Shown here piece by piece: positions 36,788 through 61,167 of a stretch of 64,000 bases of DNA (within the stretch, counting starts at the first letter, position 1; every line of letters starts with the position of its first letter). This DNA comes from Escherichia coli (GTDB lineage Bacteria > Pseudomonadota > Gammaproteobacteria > Enterobacterales > Enterobacteriaceae): assembly GCF_041886205.1 (NCBI RefSeq), contig NZ_CP169029.1. One strand, written 5' to 3'. Position numbers and translations under genes: made by a program. Below the pieces are notes generated by a model. It made no database searches. It had not been told where the DNA came from and saw nothing but the letters and a program-made list of their open reading frames with translations.

Positions 36788-39214
36788 TTATATTTTTTCG
36801 ATCTCGACCAGATTAGTGTGCTGCGGGTTTCCCTTCGCCAGTGGTGAAGGGCGCAGAGTGGTTAGCGTATTCACACAGCCGCCATGGTCGATTTTATCGC
36901 CAGACATATTGGCCTCGTGCCAGGCTCCCTGGCCCATAGCGCTAACTCCAGGGAGAATACGTGGTGTCACTTTGGCTGGTAGCCGAACTTCGCCACGATG
37001 GTTAAACACCCGCACCATATCGCCGTTGGCAATCCCACGTTTCTGCGCATCTATAGGGTTGATCCACACCTCCTGACGGCAGGCTGCTTTCAGGACATCA
37101 ATGTTGCCGTAGGTCGAGTGAGTACGGGATTTGTAATGGAAACCAAACAGTTGCAGTGGGAAGGTTCTACGTTCAGGGGAGTCCCAGCCTTCAAAGGTAG
37201 AGGCATAAACTGGCAGTGGGCTTATCACTTCATCTTTTTCCAGTTCCCAGGTACGGGCAATTTCCGCCAGCTTGCTGGAATAAATTTCAATCTTACCGGA
37301 AGGTGTTTTAAGTGGATTTGCCTCGGGGTCGTCACGAAATGCTTTGTAGGCGACAAAATGACCATTGGGATCTTTACGCTTATAGATACCCATTTTTTTC
37401 AGTTCGTCGTAAGACGGTAACGCCGGATCTTTGGCAAGCATTTTGGCGTACAGATGTTGTAACCATTGTTCCTGCGTGCGACCTTCAGTGAACTTTTGAT
37501 AGACGTCAGGTCCAAGACGTTTCGCGACTTCACTCAGGATCCAGTAAATCGGTTTGCGTTCGAATTTTTCGCTGGTGACAGGCTGGAGGAAAATGAGATA
37601 TCCCATGTTACCGGCGTAGTCGTTAGGAATAATATCTTCCTGCTCAACGGTCATCAGGTCTGGCAGCAGAATGTCGGCATATTTTGCCGATGAGGTCATA
37701 AAGTTTTCGATGACCACAATCATTTCGCATTTCGATTCGTCCTGCAGAATTTCATGCGTTTTGTTGATGTCAGAATGCTGATTAACGAGGGTATTTCCCG
37801 CGTAGTTCCAGATGAACTTAATGGGCACATCCAGTTTATCTTTGCCCCGGACGCCGTCGCGGATTGCCGTCATTTTGGGGCCATGATCGATAGCATCTGT
37901 CCAGCTGAAGCAGGAAATTGACGTTTTGACCGGATTATCCAGCACCGGCAGGCGCTCTATGGTAATGGTATAGGTCGATTCACGCGCGCCACTATTTCCG
38001 CCGCTGATGCCGACATTGCCCGTCAAAATAGGTAACATAGCAATAGCGCGTGCAGTCAGTTCGCCGTTTGCCTGGCGTTGTGGCCCCCAGCCCTGGCAGA
38101 TATAAGCGGGTTTTGCTGTGCCAATTTCACGCGCCAGTTTGATGATACGGTCCTCCGGGATACCGGTAATTTGCGAAGCCCACTGCGGCGTTTTCGCTGT
38201 TTTATCGTCACCTTCACCAAGAATATAGGCTTTATAGTGACCATTTTTGGGTGCATCTGCGGGTAAGGTTTTTTCGTCATAGCCGACGCAGTATTTATCG
38301 AGAAAAGGTTGATCAACGAGATTTTCGTTAATCAATACCCAGGCAATACCCGCAACCAGCGCGGCATCGGTGCCCGGGCGAATAGGGAGCCATTCGTCTT
38401 CACGACCGGCAGCCGTATCGGTATATCGCGGATCGATAACAATCATTTTGGCGTTCGATTTCTCGCGCGCTTTTTCAAGAAGATAAGTGATGCCACCACC
38501 GCTCATGCGGGTTTCTGCCGGGTTGTTACCAAACATCACGACCAGCTTGCTGTTTTCAATATCCGTGGTGCTGTTGCCATCATTACTGCCGTAGGTGTAG
38601 GGCATGGCACAGGAAATTTGCGCAGTGCTGTAGGAGCCATACTGGTTGAGTGAACCGCCGTAGCAGTTCATCAGGCGTTTGACCGCCGAGGCTGATGGCG
38701 AAGAGCGGGTCATATTGCCGCCAACGATCCCCGAAGAGTACTGAATATATACAGCCTCATTGCCATATTGTTCGACGGTTTTCTTCAGGCTACTGGCGAT
38801 AGTATCCAGGGCTTCATCCCAGCTAATCCGTTCGAATTTGCCTTCGCCGCGTTTGCCCACGCGTTTCATTGGGTAATTCAAGCGATCGGGATGATTAATA
38901 CGCCGGCGGATGGAGCGACCGCGCAAACAGGCGCGTACCTGATGGTTGCCGTACTCATCGCTGCCGGTATTGTCAGTTTCCACCCAGGTCACTTCATTAT
39001 CTTTAACATGTAGACGAAGTGCACAGCGGCTACCACAGTTGACGGAACAGGCACCCCAGACCACTTTTTCGCGGGCCTGTTGTACCGATGCTGCTGCATT
39101 GCGCAGGGTAAACGGCAAAGAAAAACCGCCTGCAGCCAGCGCCAGAGAACCTATCGCGGTAGATTTAACGAGTGTTCTGCGGCTGATGCCCACCATTCGT
39201 TCATTTTTGGACAT
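36788..39214 (-). CDS. ynfE: molybdopterin oxidoreductase catalytic subunit, DmsA paralogue with Tat signal
   Basis: 808-aa ORF with twin-arginine motif (SRRTLVK); tandem paralogue of ynfF. Confidence 0.9.
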   Translation of the reverse strand: MSKNERMVGISRRTLVKSTAIGSLALAAGGFSLPFTLRNAAASVQQAREKVVWGACSVNCGSRCALRLHVKDNEVTWVETDNTGSDEYGNHQVRACLRGRSIRRRINHPDRLNYPMKRVGKRGEGKFERISWDEALDTIASSLKKTVEQYGNEAVYIQYSSGIVGGNMTRSSPSASAVKRLMNCYGGSLNQYGSYSTAQISCAMPYTYGSNDGNSTTDIENSKLVVMFGNNPAETRMSGGGITYLLEKAREKSNAKMIVIDPRYTDTAAGREDEWLPIRPGTDAALVAGIAWVLINENLVDQPFLDKYCVGYDEKTLPADAPKNGHYKAYILGEGDDKTAKTPQWASQITGIPEDRIIKLAREIGTAKPAYICQGWGPQRQANGELTARAIAMLPILTGNVGISGGNSGARESTYTITIERLPVLDNPVKTSISCFSWTDAIDHGPKMTAIRDGVRGKDKLDVPIKFIWNYAGNTLVNQHSDINKTHEILQDESKCEMIVVIENFMTSSAKYADILLPDLMTVEQEDIIPNDYAGNMGYLIFLQPVTSEKFERKPIYWILSEVAKRLGPDVYQKFTEGRTQEQWLQHLYAKMLAKDPALPSYDELKKMGIYKRKDPNGHFVAYKAFRDDPEANPLKTPSGKIEIYSSKLAEIARTWELEKDEVISPLPVYASTFEGWDSPERRTFPLQLFGFHYKSRTHSTYGNIDVLKAACRQEVWINPIDAQKRGIANGDMVRVFNHRGEVRLPAKVTPRILPGVSAMGQGAWHEANMSGDKIDHGGCVNTLTTLRPSPLAKGNPQHTNLVEIEKI

Positions 39215-46212: not shown

Positions 46213-47935
46213 TTAAGAATCAGCCTGACTCGGGATCAGTTTTTGCCAGATAGCTGAAACGTATTTTGCCTGGTAACGGGCGTCATCAAGTGCATTATGG
46301 CGCTCACCTTCGAATGGAATAGCCGTTCTGGCATCGAAGTCTATGGCTTTCCCCAGCTCAACGATTGTGCGTACATCGCGATCGTTGTAGTAACGCCACG
46401 GGCAGGGGATCCCCTGCCGTTCGTATGAACGGCGCAAAATCGTGTTGTCGAAGTTGGCTCCATTTCCCCAGACATGAACAAAAAATTCACCGGAGTTTTC
46501 GTCGATAAATTCCCGCAATTGTAACAGTGCATCATCTAACGGGATTTCATCGGTCATAATGGCAGATTGCGCTTCGCGTGATTGTTTAAGCCACCATTTA
46601 ATGGTGTCCCGATCAATGACTCCGCCAGCAGTTTCCAGATCGATAGTCTTACTAAATTCCGGTCCCATATCTCCGGTTTGCGGATCGAAAAATATTGCAC
46701 CTATTGAGATAATCGGGGCATCGGGATTTTTTCCCATGGTTTCAAGGTCGATCATCAGATGAATCCCCGCTCTGCTGGTGGATGTGAGATTATGATGACC
46801 GTTTGCCTTAATTAAGGGATCTGACGCCTCGCCAGTTTCACTATCGCTGGCATGATGCTGATTGCCGCCAGTGTTCTCCTTGTGCTGATGCGCAGTGCCT
46901 TCTATTTCCTCCGGATCATTTTCCTGAACTTCAGGCTGATTCTCTCCATCGAATATTTCCTGGTATGTTGCGTCACCCATCACCGCACCACAATCAGGGC
47001 AGTTGCCGCCACCGCTCTGACCGCAGGCGGTGCAGATCTTTTCCGGTTCCTGTTGCACTACTGGTTCAGGTTGTTTCGTTTCTGGCTCGTTTTGTTGCAT
47101 ATTTGGGCTGTTTTGTTCCGCTTTCTGGTCGTTCTGTTCCGTTTCTTGCTGGTTCTGGTTCACAGAATCGCGGGTCTGGATCCCCTTAATCCATTTCGGA
47201 TCATTCGGGTCGCTAATCCCTTCAACAAATTCACCACGTGATACTGCAAGCAGTTCATCGGCGTCAGGCTGGCTGATATTGGCTGCCTGCATAATTTTGT
47301 TTACTTCGTCAGCGGTAACTTTTACTGACCCTGGTTGTGCGGTCGTGTCAGATGCACCAGTATTTTGTTGTGAACCTGAGTATGTACCGTTTTTGCGGGC
47401 GAAATATTCTTCTTTCGTGATTTCAGTAGCCCCAGCAGACAGCGCCTTATCCAGACCAGAAAGTTTATTTGCGCGACCGTATTTTTCGCCATCCTTGTCG
47501 GTGAAGAGGAAGTAGAACGGCCCCTCACGTTCTACAGATGGTTCGACTTCCACTTTGCATTCGGTTTTTTCGTTGTCTGGAATTGCCGTTTCCACTGCAT
47601 CAGTTTCTGGTACTGGCGACGAGAGAGTATCAGTTGCGCTCTGATTTGTTCCTTCATCTTCAAACACGCCCTTTGTAGTCAGGTATTCAGTAATGTATTT
47701 GTTCAGTGCCACAGGGTCTTTGTGAATGTCGATCGGACGTTCACGGACAAGGCCAAAAATAGTCTGGCGGTCGTAGCGAAGGGCATCAGGCTGTTTGCGC
47801 ATTGATGCCGAGATACGCTTCCAGTCTTCGCGGTCGTTGTCGATAACTTCATTTTTTGCCCAGCGATGGATGCTGCCGTCAATGTTTCCGGCATCCACAT
47901 CACCAGGCCAGAGAGCGTAGGCCAGTTCGTCATCC
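46213..47935 (-). pseudogene. 3' portion of a phage exonuclease gene (DnaQ-like DEDDh 3'-5' exonuclease domain) interrupted by IS629
   Basis: Open frame continues upstream from the called ORF right up to the IS629 left end; C-terminus has exonuclease motifs (…MIDLETMG…, …HNALDDA…). Confidence 0.7.
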
Positions 47936-47989: not shown

Positions 47990-48316
47990 ATGACTAAAAA
48001 TACTCGTTTTTCCCCCGAAGTCCGTCAACGGGCAGTCCGTATGGTTCTGGAAAGTCAGAGCGAATATGACTCACAATGGGCGACAATTTGTTCCATTGCT
48101 CCAAAGATTGGCTGTACGCCGGAGACTCTGCGTGTCTGGGTTCGCCAGCATGAGCGGGATACCGGGGGCGGTGATGGAGGGCTCACCACCGCTGAACGTC
48201 AGCGTCTGAAAGAGCTGGAACGTGAAAATCGTGAACTGCGCCGCAGTAACGATATCCTTCGCCAGGCTTCCGCTTATTTTGCGAAGGCGGAGTTCGACCG
48301 CCTCTGGAAAAAATGA
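47990..48316 (+). CDS. IS629 transposase OrfA (HTH)
   Basis: 108-aa [22 protein letters not shown]...; ends in an A-run slippery site. Confidence 0.85.
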
Positions 48317-49203
48317 TGCCACTGCTGGATAAGCTGCGTGAGCAGTACGGGGTCGGACCGCTATGCAGCGAACTGCATATTGCCCCGTCAACGTATTACC
48401 ACTGTCAGCAACAGCGACATCATCCGGATAAACGCAGTGCCCGTGCGCAGCGCGATGACTGGCTGAAGAAAGAGATACAGCGCGTATACGATGAAAATCA
48501 CAAGGTATACGGTGTGCGTAAAGTCTGGCGTCAGTTGTTACGGGAAGGTATCAGAGTGGCCAGATGCACTGTGGCACGTCTCATGGCGGTTATGGGACTT
48601 GCCGGTGTTCTCCGGGGTAAAAAGGTCCGTACGACCATCAGCCGGAAAGCCGTTGCCGCAGGCGACCGCGTAAACCGTCAGTTCGTGGCAGAACGACCTG
48701 ACCAGCTGTGGGTGGCTGATTTTACTTACGTCAGCACATGGCGGGGCTTCGTCTATGTGGCGTTCATCATTGATGTGTTTGCCGGATACATCGTGGGGTG
48801 GCGGGTCTCATCGTCCATGGAAACGACATTCGTGCTGGATGCACTGGAGCAGGCGTTATGGGCCCGTCGACCGTCCGGCACGGTCCATCACAGTGATAAA
48901 GGTTCTCAGTATGTATCGCTGGCCTACACACAGCGGCTTAAGGAAGCCGGATTACTGGCATCAACAGGAAGTACAGGCGACTCGTATGACAACGCGATGG
49001 CGGAGAGCATCAATGGTCTTTACAAAGCGGAGGTAATACACCGTAAGAGCTGGAAAAACCGTGCAGAAGTGGAACTGGCCACACTCACGTGGGTGGACTG
49101 GTATAACAATCGACGATTGCTGGAAAGGCTGGGCCATACTCCTCCGGCAGAAGCAGAAAAAGCTTATTATGCTTCCATCGGAAACGATGATCTGGCAGCC
49201 TGA
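48313..49203 (+). CDS. IS629 transposase OrfB (DDE integrase domain), -1 frame relative to OrfA
   Basis: 296-aa ORF with DDE motif region; overlaps orfA in the -1 frame as in IS3-family elements. Confidence 0.85.
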
Positions 49204-49245
49204 GTTCACAGATAAAACACTCTCCAGGAAACCCGGGGCGGTTCA

Positions 49246-49760
49246 TCCAGTGTTTTCCATGTCTGCTTGTATTCGCGATGAATGGCAGCAATGACCGGGT
49301 TGATTTTTCCTGTTGAATTTTCAGTGTGCTGTTGATTGGCTCTGGCACGGGCGAGATCAACAACAGACGTGTATTTTCCGGCTTCCTTGCGTTCACCTTC
49401 GCGACGTTTTTTCCAGATGCGCATCTCTGCCTGAATTTCGGGCCATTTGGCACCAGGCTTACATTTATGCTTAACCCACCCGATGGCATGCAGCTTAAGC
49501 TCCGGATACATAGCGTTAACTTCTGGCATTTTCATCAACGCTTCAACGATATGGCCGTCGAATGTTGCCATGTCTTCCTGCAACAATTCCTGTGCGCTAA
49601 TCACCATATCAACAGTGATGTTTTCACATGTGTCGAACTTAACCATGACAGCGTTCTGTACTTCAGGGGCTAGGTTGTCAAAAGTGACGTTCATCGGATC
49701 GGATTCAGTCTCGACCGGGACAAAGGAAGCAGACGCCTCATCCCAGCGGTTTTCCTGCAT
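49246..49760 (-). pseudogene. 5' portion of the IS629-interrupted phage exonuclease gene
   Basis: ORF beginning MQENRWDEASASF... runs into the IS629 right end; its last ~12 called codons are IS-derived. Confidence 0.6.
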
Positions 49761-50017: not shown

Positions 50018-50593
50018 TTAAGGATTCATTAAGCAATGTCGCAACCACCAATAAATCCGCTTAAGAACATGAAAATTGATTACTGGTATAAAGCGCTTAC
50101 AGTTGTTGGCGCTGCGTTGTTTGTCTTTAATGGAACGTCTTTTTTTGACAGATATCCCGTTGTTCCATTGGATTTTTTGTCCTCCGGCATCTTTTTTATT
50201 GGTTTGGGGGAGTGGATTAATCACCCTCTCAAAGTGAGATTTATTGGTCCTGGAGTTTGGACTCGTGGATATAATCGTTCTTAGTGCGCACTCGGTATCA
50301 TCTTCGACATACTTGGTTGTTTCCTGATTGTTACAGGAGTCGTCAAGTTCTTCTGATGTAAAACCGCAAATGGGGCACGTAACGGGAATTTTGAAAAGCG
50401 TTTCTCCGGGTTCCAGAACAAAATTTTCTGCGGTCTGATTTTGCTTCTCATATTTGTGCTCCGCGTCATTGTGAGAGCACATTCTTATTCTGAGTGCCTG
50501 TTTAAACTCACTGAAGCTGAGAGCTTCTTCGCCTTCGGCAAGACCTTCGAAGTATTCTTCGTAAGCCTTTTCCATGATTGTGTCGAAATCCAT
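50018..50593 (-). CDS. hypothetical prophage early-region protein with CxxC zinc-ribbon-like motif; 3' extent uncertain
   Basis: ATG at 50593 preceded by RBS AGGTGAG; N-terminal ~100 aa protein-like (…VTCPICGFTSEE…), distal part low-complexity and overlapping a plus-strand ORF. Confidence 0.4.
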   Translation of the reverse strand: MDFDTIMEKAYEEYFEGLAEGEEALSFSEFKQALRIRMCSHNDAEHKYEKQNQTAENFVLEPGETLFKIPVTCPICGFTSEELDDSCNNQETTKYVEDDTECALRTIISTSPNSRTNKSHFERVINPLPQTNKKDAGGQKIQWNNGISVKKRRSIKDKQRSANNCKRFIPVINFHVLKRIYWWLRHCLMNP

Positions 50594-50594
50594 A

Positions 50595-50831
50595 TCACTC
50601 ACCTGAGTTTCTTTCCAGCCAGCGACGGGCACCATTTTCGGTTTTAAACGTTTTGCTTTTGGTATACGTCATCGCGGTGAACGTACCGTCCTGGTTGGGG
50701 AACACGCCACATACCGGAGATTCGCTGTTGCCAAGATCGATAGTATCCATGCTGACCTCATTTCCCCTTAACGCCGGGGTAGCGGAACAAAAACCTGCTG
50801 CATAGTTATTAAAGTTGAACCCTGCCGTCAT
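50595..50831 (-). CDS. hypothetical small prophage protein
   Basis: 78-aa ORF whose stop lies 1 nt before the next ATG (translationally coupled arrangement). Confidence 0.4.
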   Translation of the reverse strand: MTAGFNFNNYAAGFCSATPALRGNEVSMDTIDLGNSESPVCGVFPNQDGTFTAMTYTKSKTFKTENGARRWLERNSGE

Positions 50832-51047
50832 GTTCTTACGCCTCGGGCTGGCTACTTAACCCCTGACCACTGCCTGGTAACTCGAAGTATTGCCCTGCAT
50901 TCTGTGGGGCGGGGTGGGTGGCAGGCATATAATGTACTTTGCGTTCATTGTTGTAAAGTACTTTTAGTACATTTTGTGTGTAAAAAAATGAGATGGGATA
51001 AAGTGAAGCACAAACCCGGAGGAAGGCGCTACCGGATTTATGCTGGT

Positions 51048-51467
51048 TTAAGAGGCTTTTTGTTTTTTCTTTCGTGCTAACTCTTCGTAAATTGCATTGT
51101 ACTTCTGTTTTTTCTCTTCAAGAGTTTTTAAAAGTTCATCTGTCTCACTGTCAGGGAGCTCGTCCAGAAGGTCAATGATGATTTTTTGTCTTGGATTTAA
51201 CTCCTGATAGAAACGTACCTGTCCACTTTCTTCTGTATCCTCTCCCAAAAGATAGGTTGGTGTTGTTCCTATTAGTGTTGCTAATTCCCTTAATTTCTCC
51301 CGGCGAGGAATTGTTTCGCCATTAAACCATTTGCTAACCGCTTTTGGTGTTAATTTCATTCGACGGGCAATTTCTGCCTGCCTTCCATGTTGTTCATAAC
51401 CAGCGTTTTCACAGGCTAGCGCAAGCCTACTGGCGAACTCTTTACGCGCTTTATCTTCATGAACCAT
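51048..51467 (-). CDS. prophage repressor, XRE-family HTH (DicA/cI-like)
   Basis: 139-aa ORF with HTH (…MKLTPKAVSKWFNGETIP…); divergent from a Cro-like gene. Confidence 0.75.
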   Translation of the reverse strand: MVHEDKARKEFASRLALACENAGYEQHGRQAEIARRMKLTPKAVSKWFNGETIPRREKLRELATLIGTTPTYLLGEDTEESGQVRFYQELNPRQKIIIDLLDELPDSETDELLKTLEEKKQKYNAIYEELARKKKQKAS

Positions 51468-51546
51468 AAGTTCAATGATATTCGCTCTTGAATGTACTGT
51501 CAGTTCTGTTATAGCATGTACTCAAAGTTCACACTGTGAGGGTGAT

Positions 51547-51801
51547 ATGAACCAGAAAACACTTGAAGATGTAATCAAAACTGTTCGCGTTGCTGTTGTG
51601 GCCGACGTTTGTGGTGTCAGCCAAAGAGCAATCTATAAATGGATGGATAACGGAAAATTGCCTCGCACAGAATATACCGGCGAAACAAATTACGCTGAAA
51701 AAATCGCTCTTGCATCAAACGGATTATTTTCTGCCGATGCAATTTTAACTATTGGCAGGAATAAAACTACTACGAAAAAGCTGATGGGAGTTGATTCATG
51801 A
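51547..51801 (+). CDS. Cro/YdaS-like HTH protein
   Basis: ATG at 51547 with RBS GAGGGTGA; HTH (…VADVCGVSQRAIYKWMDNGKLP…); ATGA overlap with next gene. Confidence 0.65.
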   Translation: MNQKTLEDVIKTVRVAVVADVCGVSQRAIYKWMDNGKLPRTEYTGETNYAEKIALASNGLFSADAILTIGRNKTTTKKLMGVDS

Positions 51802-52223
51802 AAATCAAGCATGAACACATCCGCATGGCGATGAATGCCTGGGCGCATCCGGACGGCGAAAAAGTACCGGCTGCGAAAATTACCAAAGCGTATTTCGAGC
51901 TGGGAATGACGTTCCCGGAACTGTATGACGACAGCCATCCGGAAGCCCTGGCTCGCAATACTCAGAAAATTTTCCGCTGGGTGGAGAAAGACACCCCTGA
52001 TGCGGTTAAAAAAATTCAGGCGTTGTTACCAGCTATCGAAAAAGCAATGCCACCTCTGCTGGTGGCCCGAATGCGCAGTCATAGCTCAGCCTATTTTCGG
52101 GAACTAGTGGAGACGCGGGAACGACTGGTGAGAGACGCTGATGATTTTGTCGCAGTGGCGATCGCTGGTTTCAACCAGATGAATCGTGGTGGCCCTGCAG
52201 GAAATATTGTGGTTGTGCATTGA
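51798..52223 (+). CDS. YdaT-like prophage protein
   Basis: 141-aa ORF beginning MKIKHEHI..., same length class and context as Rac YdaT (recalled). Confidence 0.6.
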   Translation: MKIKHEHIRMAMNAWAHPDGEKVPAAKITKAYFELGMTFPELYDDSHPEALARNTQKIFRWVEKDTPDAVKKIQALLPAIEKAMPPLLVARMRSHSSAYFRELVETRERLVRDADDFVAVAIAGFNQMNRGGPAGNIVVVH

Positions 52224-52294
52224 CTCGCAATATTCATACCGGATCACTTCCGGCAATTTGTGAGTAAAAAGATTCGGTATCAAAAGAGGTGAGT

Positions 52295-53365
52295 ATGGCT
52301 AACGCCTGGCTCAGATTATGGCATGACATGCCAAATGACCCTAAGTGGCGAACAATTGCCAGGGTGTCAGGGCAGCCAATTGCAACAGTGATGGCAGTGT
52401 ATATCCACCTCTTGGTGAGCGCGTCACGAAATGTCACGCGAGGTCACATTGATGTCACGACAGAAGATTTGGCAAGTGCGCTCGACGTGACAGAAGAGGT
52501 AATTGATTCAATTTTGCAGACGATGCAGGGGCGGGTACTTGATGGTGATTTAATCACTGGATGGGAAAAACGCCAGGTGCTTAAAGAGGACAACGGCAAT
52601 ATTTCGCAAACCGCAAAATCTCCTGCAGAGCGCAAGAGGGCGCAGCGAGAGAGGGAAAGAAAGCGGGAACAAAATGGCGATTGTCACGGCGCGTCACGAA
52701 ATGTCACGCACATGTCACGACGAGTCACGACAGATAAAGATACAGATAAAGATACAGATCAAGAAGATCAAAACACTATGGTCCATGGCGTAAAAAACGC
52801 CACGAACCAGGCAGGGGATGTTCAGACCGTCAATCTTGGTCAGCCAGCAGGCACGACACCGGAAGCCGATTCAGCGTATGCGCTGAAAGCCGATTCGGGC
52901 GCTGTGCAGCAGGTGATGACCGCAAGGCCGGAGCAATCACACCAACTGCAGCAGCCCGAAGCCGATTCCGCCATTCAGCGGGAAGCCGATCGGGTAGTCC
53001 CGGAAAACACCGGGCAGTCTGTGGGACGAGTGGATTATCCGGATGTGTTCGAACAGGTCTGGCGGGAGTACCCGTTGCGTGCCGGAGCAAACCCGAAGAA
53101 ATCCGCTTTCAGTGCCTGGAAGGCCAGATTACGCGAGGGGGTGCCACCAGAGGCCATGCTGGATGGCGTGAGGCGTTACGCAAGATACTTGGCGGCTACC
53201 GGGAAAACGGGAACGGAATTTGTTCAGCGAGCGACGACGTTTTTTGGACCGGACCGGAATTTTGAGAACTCCTGGTTGCTCCCGGTAAGCGGCACGAACA
53301 ACCAGCGTTGTGTGAATCATATTTCTGAACCGGATAACGAAATTCCGCCGGGCTTCAGGGGGTAA
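52295..53365 (+). CDS. putative phage replication initiation protein (O/YdaU-like)
   Basis: Position after the cro-like gene; ATG at 52295 with RBS; internal iteron-like DNA repeats. Confidence 0.55.
   Translation: MANAWLRLWHDMPNDPKWRTIARVSGQPIATVMAVYIHLLVSASRNVTRGHIDVTTEDLASALDVTEEVIDSILQTMQGRVLDGDLITGWEKRQVLKEDNGNISQTAKSPAERKRAQRERERKREQNGDCHGASRNVTHMSRRVTTDKDTDKDTDQEDQNTMVHGVKNATNQAGDVQTVNLGQPAGTTPEADSAYALKADSGAVQQVMTARPEQSHQLQQPEADSAIQREADRVVPENTGQSVGRVDYPDVFEQVWREYPLRAGANPKKSAFSAWKARLREGVPPEAMLDGVRRYARYLAATGKTGTEFVQRATTFFGPDRNFENSWLLPVSGTNNQRCVNHISEPDNEIPPGFRG
52421..52760 (+). repeat. iteron-like direct repeats (putative prophage origin) inside the replication gene
   Basis: Exact 19-bp repeat GCGTCACGAAATGTCACGC at 52421-52439 and 52690-52708; about nine GTCAC motifs in two clusters; tandem ACAGATAAAGAT repeat at 52731-52760. 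Confidence 0.65.
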
Positions 53366-60320: not shown

Positions 60321-60683
60321 GGTAATATTAAATCGGAACATTTACATCGCGGAATGTAAAATTTAAATAAAAAGGACTCTTCCATGAGCCAAAATTCCTG
60401 AAATCTTAAGGGTAAGATAAAAGGTCTTAATCAGAATGACACGTTATTATTAATAAATAAAGCTATTCTTTCATTGCTGTGTTTTTCTTTACAAAAGTAA
60501 TCCTTGCTATGGGTGGTTAATCATGCGTTAATGGTGTTCTGGTTTGTTACAAATTTATCTGAAGCAGTCATTGTTATAATTTTATTATTTGTACCTCTTG
60601 AGATTTCCTTGTTGGTTTTTCTCTCTGATATTTTTTTTCGGACCATTCTGCCCAAGGGCTAATTTCTTCAAAAGGTAATAATT

Positions 60684-60896
60684 ATGTCTAACAAAATGAC
60701 TGGTTTAGTGAAATGGTTTAACCCTGAAAAAGGTTTTGGTTTCATCACGCCGAAAGATGGCAGCAAAGATGTGTTTGTCCATTTCTCAGCAATTCAGAGC
60801 AACGATTTCAAAACATTAACTGAGAATCAGGAAGTTGAATTTGGTATTGAGAACGGACCTAAAGGTCCTGCCGCTGTTCATGTAGTGGCGCTTTGA
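60684..60896 (+). CDS. cspI: cold-shock protein (CspA family), prophage-encoded
   Basis: 70-aa [41 protein letters not shown]...; preceded by a long AT-rich leader. Confidence 0.8.
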
Positions 60897-61167
60897 GGTA
60901 GACAATATTACAAACCATATTCACTTTAGATGCCCGTGTTGTCATGGTTCCCAGTATAGAACATCATCTTTTGATGTTTCTGACATGAATCCTTTCGGGG
61001 CAAAATGTATCTTTTGTAAATCAATGATGATTACATTTGATAATATTTCACAATACTTAAATGCCAGCCGTCTGTCGTTGGATTTAAAAAAGTGAAAATG
61101 AAGGCTCCTTCGGGAGTTTTTTTGCTTGGTATCTATTCGATGGATACTCACATACTACGGTAACATC

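Follow-up and report, generated by a model that had tools for sequence, protein, structure and literature searches.

In the 64-kb stretch of Escherichia coli DNA analysed here (64,000 nucleotides; hereafter the window), two short rightward genes overlap by the four nucleotides ATGA at 51798-51801. Both open reading frames were recovered from the open-reading-frame list and from the sequence, in agreement with the earlier note, which had described a Cro-like helix-turn-helix (HTH) gene running into a 141-aa gene. The junction reads ...GTT GAT TCA TGA in the frame of gene 1 and ATG AAA ATC in the frame of gene 2, and in a 99.9% identical E. coli chromosome the NCBI pipeline (PGAP) annotates both genes with an identical 4-nt overlap. 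Overlaps of this kind, 4 nt long and reading ATGA, are more frequent than any other in bacterial operons, and on its own this one is unremarkable. What stands above chance is a perfect 6-N6-6 inverted repeat that is centred on the overlap.

The genes are arranged rightwards in the order repressor (divergent, on the minus strand), cro, ydaT and replication gene, confirming that the pair sits between the immunity region, with the repressor gene at 51048-51467 on one side, and the replication gene at 52289-53365 on the other. The latter, next in the rightward operon on the plus strand, encodes a replication initiation protein or replisome organiser analogous to lambda O (PHROG 3729, E 2.9e-257; PGAP 'phage replisome organizer'), and is followed rightwards by genes for DUF977 and DUF968 and then by the antiterminator Q gene. 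To the left of the repressor lie DUF1391, a recE-like exonuclease gene split by IS3, xis and int, and beyond these the host genes rspB and rspA. A lambdoid prophage therefore occupies the Qin site, adjoining rspB, and the gene pair is part of its immunity and early-right region; the Rac-like setting of the earlier note is not supported, as this is not the Rac site.

Gene 1 (51547..51801, plus strand, with its TGA at 51799-51801) encodes 84 aa with an HTH at about residues 15-40, is preceded by the Shine-Dalgarno (SD) sequence GAGGG at 51538-51542, and matched PHROG 35 'transcriptional repressor' (E 6.8e-14). PGAP lists it as a 255-nt HTH regulator, and in Pfam it reached 23.3 bits against HTH_17, under the cut-off. 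A 108-aa version starting at ATG 51475, as in the record of phage Tritos, was discarded: that ATG has no SD, and we prefer the 84-aa start because ATG 51475 falls among the divergent promoters and operators, ahead of the probable rightward promoter. The proposal that gene 1 is also YdaS-like was not borne out by an HMM search, in which the YdaS family model PF15943 returned 12.1 bits (E 0.18), short of its cut-off of 30; Rac YdaS, the positive control, scored 107.7 bits. BLASTP aligned gene 1 to Rac YdaS across 18 residues at E 0.075 and produced no alignment at all to CP-933P YdaS, and a PDB search with gene 1 found no solved homologue. Membership in the YdaS family was thus negative by Pfam, BLASTP and PDB alike; a remote kinship with YdaS inside the HTH clan may exist, and beyond the HTH motif there was no detectable homology of gene 1 to characterised Cro or YdaS proteins. 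Gene 1 can still be described as encoding a small HTH protein that occupies the position of Cro, as it opens the operon and diverges from the repressor gene, the intergenic region holding multiple shared operators. Judged by this position and by the operators, gene 1 is presumably a Cro analogue.

Gene 2 (51798..52223, plus strand, with its TGA at 52221-52223) encodes 141 aa and has its own SD, GGGAG at 51786..51790, which lies within the end of cro, 7 nt before the ATG. Its likeness to YdaT, proposed earlier, was upheld by the same kind of search: the product passes the Pfam model PF06254 (39.1 bits, cut-off 21, E 1.1e-9), a small family of 74 cluster representatives among 1.84 billion, and matches PHROG 163 'CII-like transcriptional activator' (E 3.8e-45), PDB 3C4R (E 4.2e-90, ~96% identical across all 141 residues) and PDB 8BT1, the YdaT of prophage CP-933P (E 5.2e-81, 86% identical). 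By its sequence, gene 2 is a clear member of the YdaT family, with the expected properties of a tetrameric, POU-like HTH activator. The recognition-helix Arg-Trp pair is present as R60/W61 (R57/W58 in Rac), and among 24 diverse YdaT homologues R60 was invariant and W61 nearly so. At the positions that form the core of the tetramerisation helix in CP-933P, the gene 2 product carries L103, L110, V111, A114, F117, V118 and A121. The NCBIfam models gave no match to YdaT at E <= 0.01, and the lambda CII family was absent from the Pfam matches to gene 2 at the same threshold, indicating that YdaT is an analogue of lambda CII and not a homologue detectable by sequence. The tail of YdaT, which is crystallographically disordered, ends in hydrophobic residues and a His, VVVH in the window and VIVH in Rac; the terminal His was found in 15 of 24 YdaT representatives that are otherwise about 26-53% identical to the window protein.

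The divergent gene (51048..51467, minus strand) encodes a CI-analogue repressor of 139 aa with an N-terminal HTH_3 domain (Pfam, 37.9 bits) and a helical C-terminal part, and without an S24 peptidase domain. It scored 56.8 bits against the NCBIfam DicA subfamily, under the cut-off of 101, and its similarity to the CP-933P repressor PaaR2 was weak (22% over 104 aa, E 2e-5). A motif scan located three TG(T/A)AC-N5-GT(T/A)CA sites in the right operator region (51460..51531), at 51460-51474, 51493-51507 and 51517-51531, and motif and consensus scans found a left operator/promoter region (50929..50971, minus strand) with sites at 50933-50947 and 50957-50971 and a promoter-like TTTACA-17-CATTAT. With zero mismatches, all three matches of this motif in the 64-kb window fell inside the immunity region; with at most one mismatch there were 18 matches against 6.0 expected, of which five cluster at the right and left operators.

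Promoter-like sequences accompany these operators. A consensus scan gave a PRM-like promoter, CTGACA-17-TATCAT (51475..51503, minus strand, 10/12 matches), whose -10 hexamer ends 8 nt ahead of the repressor ATG at 51467, and that ATG has no SD before it. The position of the -10 hexamer suggests that the repressor mRNA is leaderless, because so short a distance separates it from the start codon; leaderless mRNAs have been described for lambda cI and for paaR2 (PMC8630535). In the rightward direction, a relaxed hexamer scan yielded a weakly matching candidate for a PR-like promoter, either TTGAAT-18-TAGCAT or TTGAAT-16-TATAGC (51488..51517, plus strand), which two of the operators overlap. Scanning for a PRE analogue gave weak candidates with 7-8/12 consensus matches, TAGTTT-16-TAAAAT (51769->51742) and TAGTTA-17-AATAAT (51751->51723), and the published positions of such reverse promoters differ, that of CP-933P being close to the YdaT-box described below and that of Rac about 190 bp off. 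We also considered an OOP-like antisense RNA at a minus-strand terminator-like hairpin within ydaT (52066-52049) and rejected it: terminator counts were at chance (2 against 1.7 expected), no promoter-like site lies downstream of the hairpin, Rac-type ydaT lacks the hairpin, and an Rfam search gave no match at this place.

The inverted repeat at the junction, TTGATT-CATGAA-AATCAA (TTGATTCATGAAAATCAA, 51791..51808), is a YdaT-box, and the window holds one perfect match to it where 0.01 would be expected. Its left half consists of the last codons of cro, its spacer holds the ATGA overlap, and its right half is made up of ydaT codons 2-4, such that the conserved N-terminal M-x-I-K of YdaT falls on the right half-site. 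The fetched CP-933P junction is identical at 18/18 bp and has the ATGA overlap as well, and the Rac YdaT-box, ATGATTCATGAAAATCAA, is one nucleotide off the window box and lies at -7 of the Rac ydaT ATG. In CP-933P this site was footprinted with DNase I as OM, the high-affinity operator of YdaT, itself a POU-like HTH tetramer, and the footprint widens to about 95 bp with more protein (PMC9986795). In Rac, where the box overlaps the ydaT start codon, a reverse promoter inside ydaS is activated 29-fold and this activation is lost when the box is mutated, and the Rac and CP-933P YdaT proteins cross-recognise each other's boxes (PMC11879457). Allowing two mismatches, we counted six box matches in the window against 4.55 expected, and only the junction site lies in a prophage regulatory region; the box-like matches at 38318 and 40046 lie left of rspA/rspB and of the prophage int, and hence outside the prophage. 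Second YdaT-boxes as analogues of lambda PI or PaQ were therefore rejected, as the counts are near chance and none falls at another prophage regulatory site.

Surveying related phages, we found that cro and ydaT re-assort freely and that the box stays in place. Phage records resemble the window either up to the box or from the box onward, with breakpoints at 51788-51821: three phages match the window over 50900-51821 and then continue with a Rac-type ydaT, and five others match from ~51788-51793 onward and carry different cro genes. We sampled 80 viral contigs with a YdaT at least 96% identical to that of the window and 80 with a Rac-type YdaT. Among the 80 window-type contigs, the gene upstream of ydaT belonged to at least eight unrelated types, the left half of the box read TTGATT in 42, ATGATT in 18, GGGATT in 10, GTGATT in eight and ATGATTAATG in two, and the overlap between the two genes was 4 nt in 55, 17 nt in 23 and 1 nt in two. 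The window-type Cro was paired with a window-type YdaT in 24 contigs and with a Rac-type YdaT in 18. In these 18 of the 80 Rac-type contigs the box is perfect and the two genes overlap by ATGA, whereas Rac YdaS is present in 39, a 22-nt gap separating the genes in 37 of these, and the right half of the box was AATCAG in 22 of the 80. Across 5426 complete E. coli genomes, the cro allele was present in 1032, the ydaT allele, with up to seven copies per genome, in 2966, and the whole repressor-cro-ydaT module in 409.

The position of the box was kept over much larger distances. Contigs were fetched for four distant YdaT homologues (30-45% identity). In three of them the repressor is followed by a cro-type gene and ydaT, two of these three with replication-type genes within a few genes downstream; for the fourth, just 21 bases upstream of ydaT were available, and replication genes lie downstream. 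The best box-like sites of the four, TTGATATATGGAAATCAA, TTGAACAATGCAAATCAA, CTGACACATGAAAATCAA and CTGATTAATGGAAATCAA, are all at -7 of the ATG, and wherever an upstream gene was present it stops about 10 nt before the ydaT ATG. The box lies exactly at -7 of the ydaT ATG in all 160 viral contigs and the four distant homologues (six loci). Because the box is kept at -7 while the overlap varies, the conserved feature is the box and not the overlap. The ATGA overlap is a by-product of the box, since the box spacer reads CATGAA and any upstream cro entering it in one frame stops at that TGA, whereas in another frame it stops 13 nt later; accordingly, the frame of entry decides whether a Cro protein, of whichever unrelated type, has the end ...DS* or ...IHENQA*. 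The box is also the point at which lambdoid phages exchange their immunity modules.

Taken together, we consider it highly probable that the pair consists of a Cro-type and a CII-type (YdaT) regulator in the rightward early operon of a lambda-like prophage immunity region adjoining rspB. Transcription from PR would yield Cro and YdaT, and as ydaT has its own SD, coupling of its translation to the termination of cro is possible and would not be required. YdaT, assembled into a tetramer via its long C-terminal helix, would bind the TTGATT-N6-AATCAA repeat that straddles its own start codon, and from there would switch on a leftward promoter, in or beside cro, that is silent without it. The resulting transcript, antisense to cro, would provide a second route to the repressor by which lysogeny is established or reinforced, with Cro and repressor competing at the three shared TG(T/A)AC-N5-GT(T/A)CA operators. 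We infer from CP-933P and, at 33% identity, from Rac that DNA binding, tetramer formation, activation of a reverse promoter and the lack of toxin-antitoxin behaviour would carry over to the window allele, because it shares 86% protein identity and an identical operator with the CP-933P system. Since IS3 splits the exonuclease gene and the prophage is damaged, the circuit may act solely as a maintenance switch.

A tentative extension, which we regard as possible if somewhat unlikely, joins two further ideas: that the tail of YdaT is a degradation signal under the control of a host protease, and that the YdaT of one phage activates the repressors of all co-resident prophages with a YdaT-box. The first draws on a parallel with lambda CII, in which a C-terminal tail confers control by FtsH; proteolytic control of YdaT was stated to be unknown (PMC8630535), and we found no link between YdaT and FtsH in the literature searched. 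Cross-talk between co-resident prophages would be possible because all YdaT variants read one common box, with up to seven copies of the allele in a genome. If the extension holds, the tail degron would supply the missing physiological input to the lysis-lysogeny decision of YdaT-type phages.

Three other readings of the pair were weighed against the Cro/CII-type switch. In the first, box-bound YdaT acts as a brake in cis that blocks PR transcription or the access of ribosomes, limiting ydaT and the replication gene instead of activating the repressor. The box does span the region from the SD to codon 4 of ydaT, its position is constant across the family despite differing upstream genes, and the wider footprint of about 95 bp at higher concentration (PMC9986795) would suit such a role. 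However, a Rac ydaT reporter was nearly unchanged between intact and mutated box, in contrast to a 29-fold rise at the reverse promoter (PMC11879457), YdaT activates PRE933P (PMC8630535), and a block of translation would need binding to RNA and not DNA, the RNA hairpin at this site having six pairs that are mostly A-U. We hence regard the brake as improbable.

In the second, YdaT reprograms the host besides or instead of serving the phage, by activating rcsA and causing filamentation, in line with the earlier suggestion of a module that affects cell division. Rac YdaT indeed binds upstream of rcsA and raises its expression about 5-fold, with filamentation and death, and this protein and CP-933P YdaT recognise each other's boxes (PMC11879457); the DNA-contacting R60 and W61 are conserved in the window protein. 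Yet the CP-933P protein fails to activate the rcsA promoter (PMC11879457 Fig. 7C) and is non-toxic (PMC8630535), and the window YdaT is 86% identical to this type and only 33-34% to that of Rac. The rcsA site is specific to Rac YdaT, because just 7/12 of its positions match the box. The effect on cell division is therefore real for the distant Rac YdaT only, via rcsA, and a host role of this kind at the window locus is quite improbable.

The third, a type II toxin-antitoxin pair with YdaT as the toxin, the upstream HTH protein as the antitoxin and the overlap fixing their ratio of synthesis, is hardly credible: a small HTH gene overlapping a slightly larger one does resemble such operons, and expression of Rac ydaS/ydaT is toxic (PMC5700377, PMC5700373), but the 86% identical CP-933P YdaT is not, YdaT is a sequence-specific DNA-binding tetramer with an operator placed at the start codon of ydaT itself (PMC9986795), the pairing is not a cognate one (at least eight unrelated genes precede the same YdaT, and the same Cro occurs with a YdaT just 33% identical), the genome counts of cro, ydaT and the joint module are unequal, and the overlap is not conserved. 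The toxin-antitoxin-like module mentioned in the earlier note was put to the test and rejected in the literature, by the authors of the CP-933P study (PMC8630535) and likewise in PMC5917428 and PMC9986795, and is contradicted by the free re-assortment of both genes. PADLOC defence models gave generic HTH matches and none for YdaT.

We therefore retain the Cro/CII-type switch, which also bears on annotation. The names 'toxin YdaT family protein' at NCBI and 'YdaT_toxin' and 'YdaS_toxin' in Pfam are still in use and invite toxin-antitoxin readings, while the case from genetic context against the 'toxin' label dates from 2018 (PMC5917428), and the evidence places the gene in a prophage module that is very common in E. 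coli, as part of its switch between lysis and lysogeny. To this picture the present analysis makes small additions: the box is found at -7 family-wide, it explains both the overlap and the tails of the Cro proteins, and it is the exchange point of immunity modules.

Compared with lambda, the pair takes the place that Cro and CII have in the PR operon, flanked by the repressor and O genes, although neither product matches the lambda Cro or CII families by sequence. In both lambda and the YdaT systems an activator bound at the cro-cII border drives leftward transcription that establishes the repressor, and CII and YdaT alike form tetramers whose C-terminal tail is disordered (PMC8630535, PMC9986795). 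The site recognised by CII is the direct repeat TTGC-N6-TTGC, whereas the POU-like domain of YdaT, with 222 symmetry, reads an inverted repeat, and no CIII analogue, second sites of the PI/PaQ type or proteolytic control have been reported for YdaT.

The RacR/YdaS/YdaT system of K-12 Rac has the same architecture as the window, with a YdaT that activates a reverse promoter for the repressor and shares the N-terminal MKIKHEHI and the C-terminal ...VH with the window protein. It differs in that its YdaT is 33-34% and its YdaS 17% identical to the window products and in that a 22-nt gap replaces the overlap. Furthermore, the Rac protein binds between racR and ydaS and, in the host, at the rcsA promoter, and it is toxic, unlike the CP-933P type (PMC11879457). 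PDB 3C4R, a structural-genomics entry given as the YdaT of E. coli O6:H1 (PMC9986795), is in effect a solved structure of the gene 2 product, at ~96% identity, with five residue differences besides the first residue.

The closest characterised system is CP-933P (Sp12 of E. coli O157:H7, the source of 8BT1). It differs from the window in its YdaS, which is a PF15943 member that BLASTP could not align with gene 1, in its repressor PaaR2 (22% identical) and its replication genes, and in a paaA2-parE2 toxin-antitoxin cassette behind the repressor, which is absent from the window. It shares with the window the order repressor, cro-type gene, ydaT, replication gene, a YdaT of 86% identity, the identical 18-bp box and the same ATGA overlap. 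CP-933P YdaT binds this box as a tetramer (PMC9986795) and in vivo activates PRE933P, a leftward promoter that supplies the repressor operon and is silent without YdaT; YdaT toxicity was not seen, and the authors described YdaS and YdaT as Cro and CII analogues and not as a toxin-antitoxin pair (PMC8630535). Overall, the arrangement in the window is an already known and common one, and our additions refine this picture and do not change it.

We found the YdaT-box, the inverted repeat TTGATT-N6-AATCAA at the ydaT start codon, to retain its position even among distant homologues. In metagenome and genome contigs whose ydaT homologues are only 30-45% identical (L167-L172), a YdaT-box-like inverted repeat lies exactly at -7 of the ydaT start and, where an upstream gene is present, ydaT does not overlap it. 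The right half-site AATCAA coincides with codons for M-x-I-K, the family-conserved N-terminal motif of YdaT. In other phages (loci L002-L004), similarity to the window ends exactly at the box (51788-51821). The YdaT-box together with the first ydaT codons serves as a common joint: immunity modules (repressor and cro) on one side and ydaT/replication modules on the other are swapped there.

Among E. coli complete genomes, the ydaT allele class of the window reaches up to 7 copies in a single genome, O157:H7 strains being one example. As all copies read essentially one common box, prophages that share a host probably cross-talk through YdaT. Public names for the gene are misleading: the phage Tritos record (OV696610.1, 4576-5324) calls it 'Rha family transcriptional regulator' and annotates cro from a long 108-aa start, and RefSeq lists this protein as 'toxin YdaT family protein'.

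The prophage has been damaged by an IS3-family element (47990-49203), which cuts its recE-like exonuclease gene in two, leaving parts of 561 aa and 184 aa (46213-47898 and 49206-49760, minus strand). The element was recognised by a pair of overlapping ORFs and by an ALIL frameshift pseudoknot matched in Rfam (48271-48387), and the exonuclease gene is uninterrupted in a near-identical prophage of NZ_CP116176. The leftward operon of the window contains a 205-aa ORF (50018-50635, minus strand; PHROG 35040, function unassigned, no match in a Pfam search); in the corresponding section of the operon, two related prophages have dicB and ydfD (NZ_CP116176) or dicB, ydfD and DicF (phage Tritos). In the late region of the window's prophage, an Rfam match to the cspA thermoregulator (60538-60923) is consistent with the cspI-like cold-shock gene cargo of Qin-type prophages.

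The C-terminal tail of YdaT (residues 125-141; 52170-52220), disordered in the 8BT1 crystal of CP-933P YdaT, consists in the window protein of a Gly/Pro/Ser-rich stretch followed by hydrophobic residues and a final His (VVVH), and 15 of the 24 diverse representatives of the family have His as their last residue. The tail could be a degradation signal, comparable to the one at the C-terminus of lambda CII, a question on which our literature search found no paper. Inside ydaT, on the minus strand and hence antisense to it, a terminator-like hairpin, GCCACCAGCAGAGGTGGC then ATTGCTTTTT (52049-52066), recalls lambda OOP; terminator counts are no higher than chance, a search for a promoter serving the hairpin found none, and Rac-type ydaT lacks it. 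As the repressor ATG lies 8 nt downstream of a good -10 hexamer with no Shine-Dalgarno sequence before it (51465-51503, minus strand), the sequence suggests a leaderless repressor mRNA, resembling the leaderless mRNAs of lambda PRM-cI and CP-933P paaR2.
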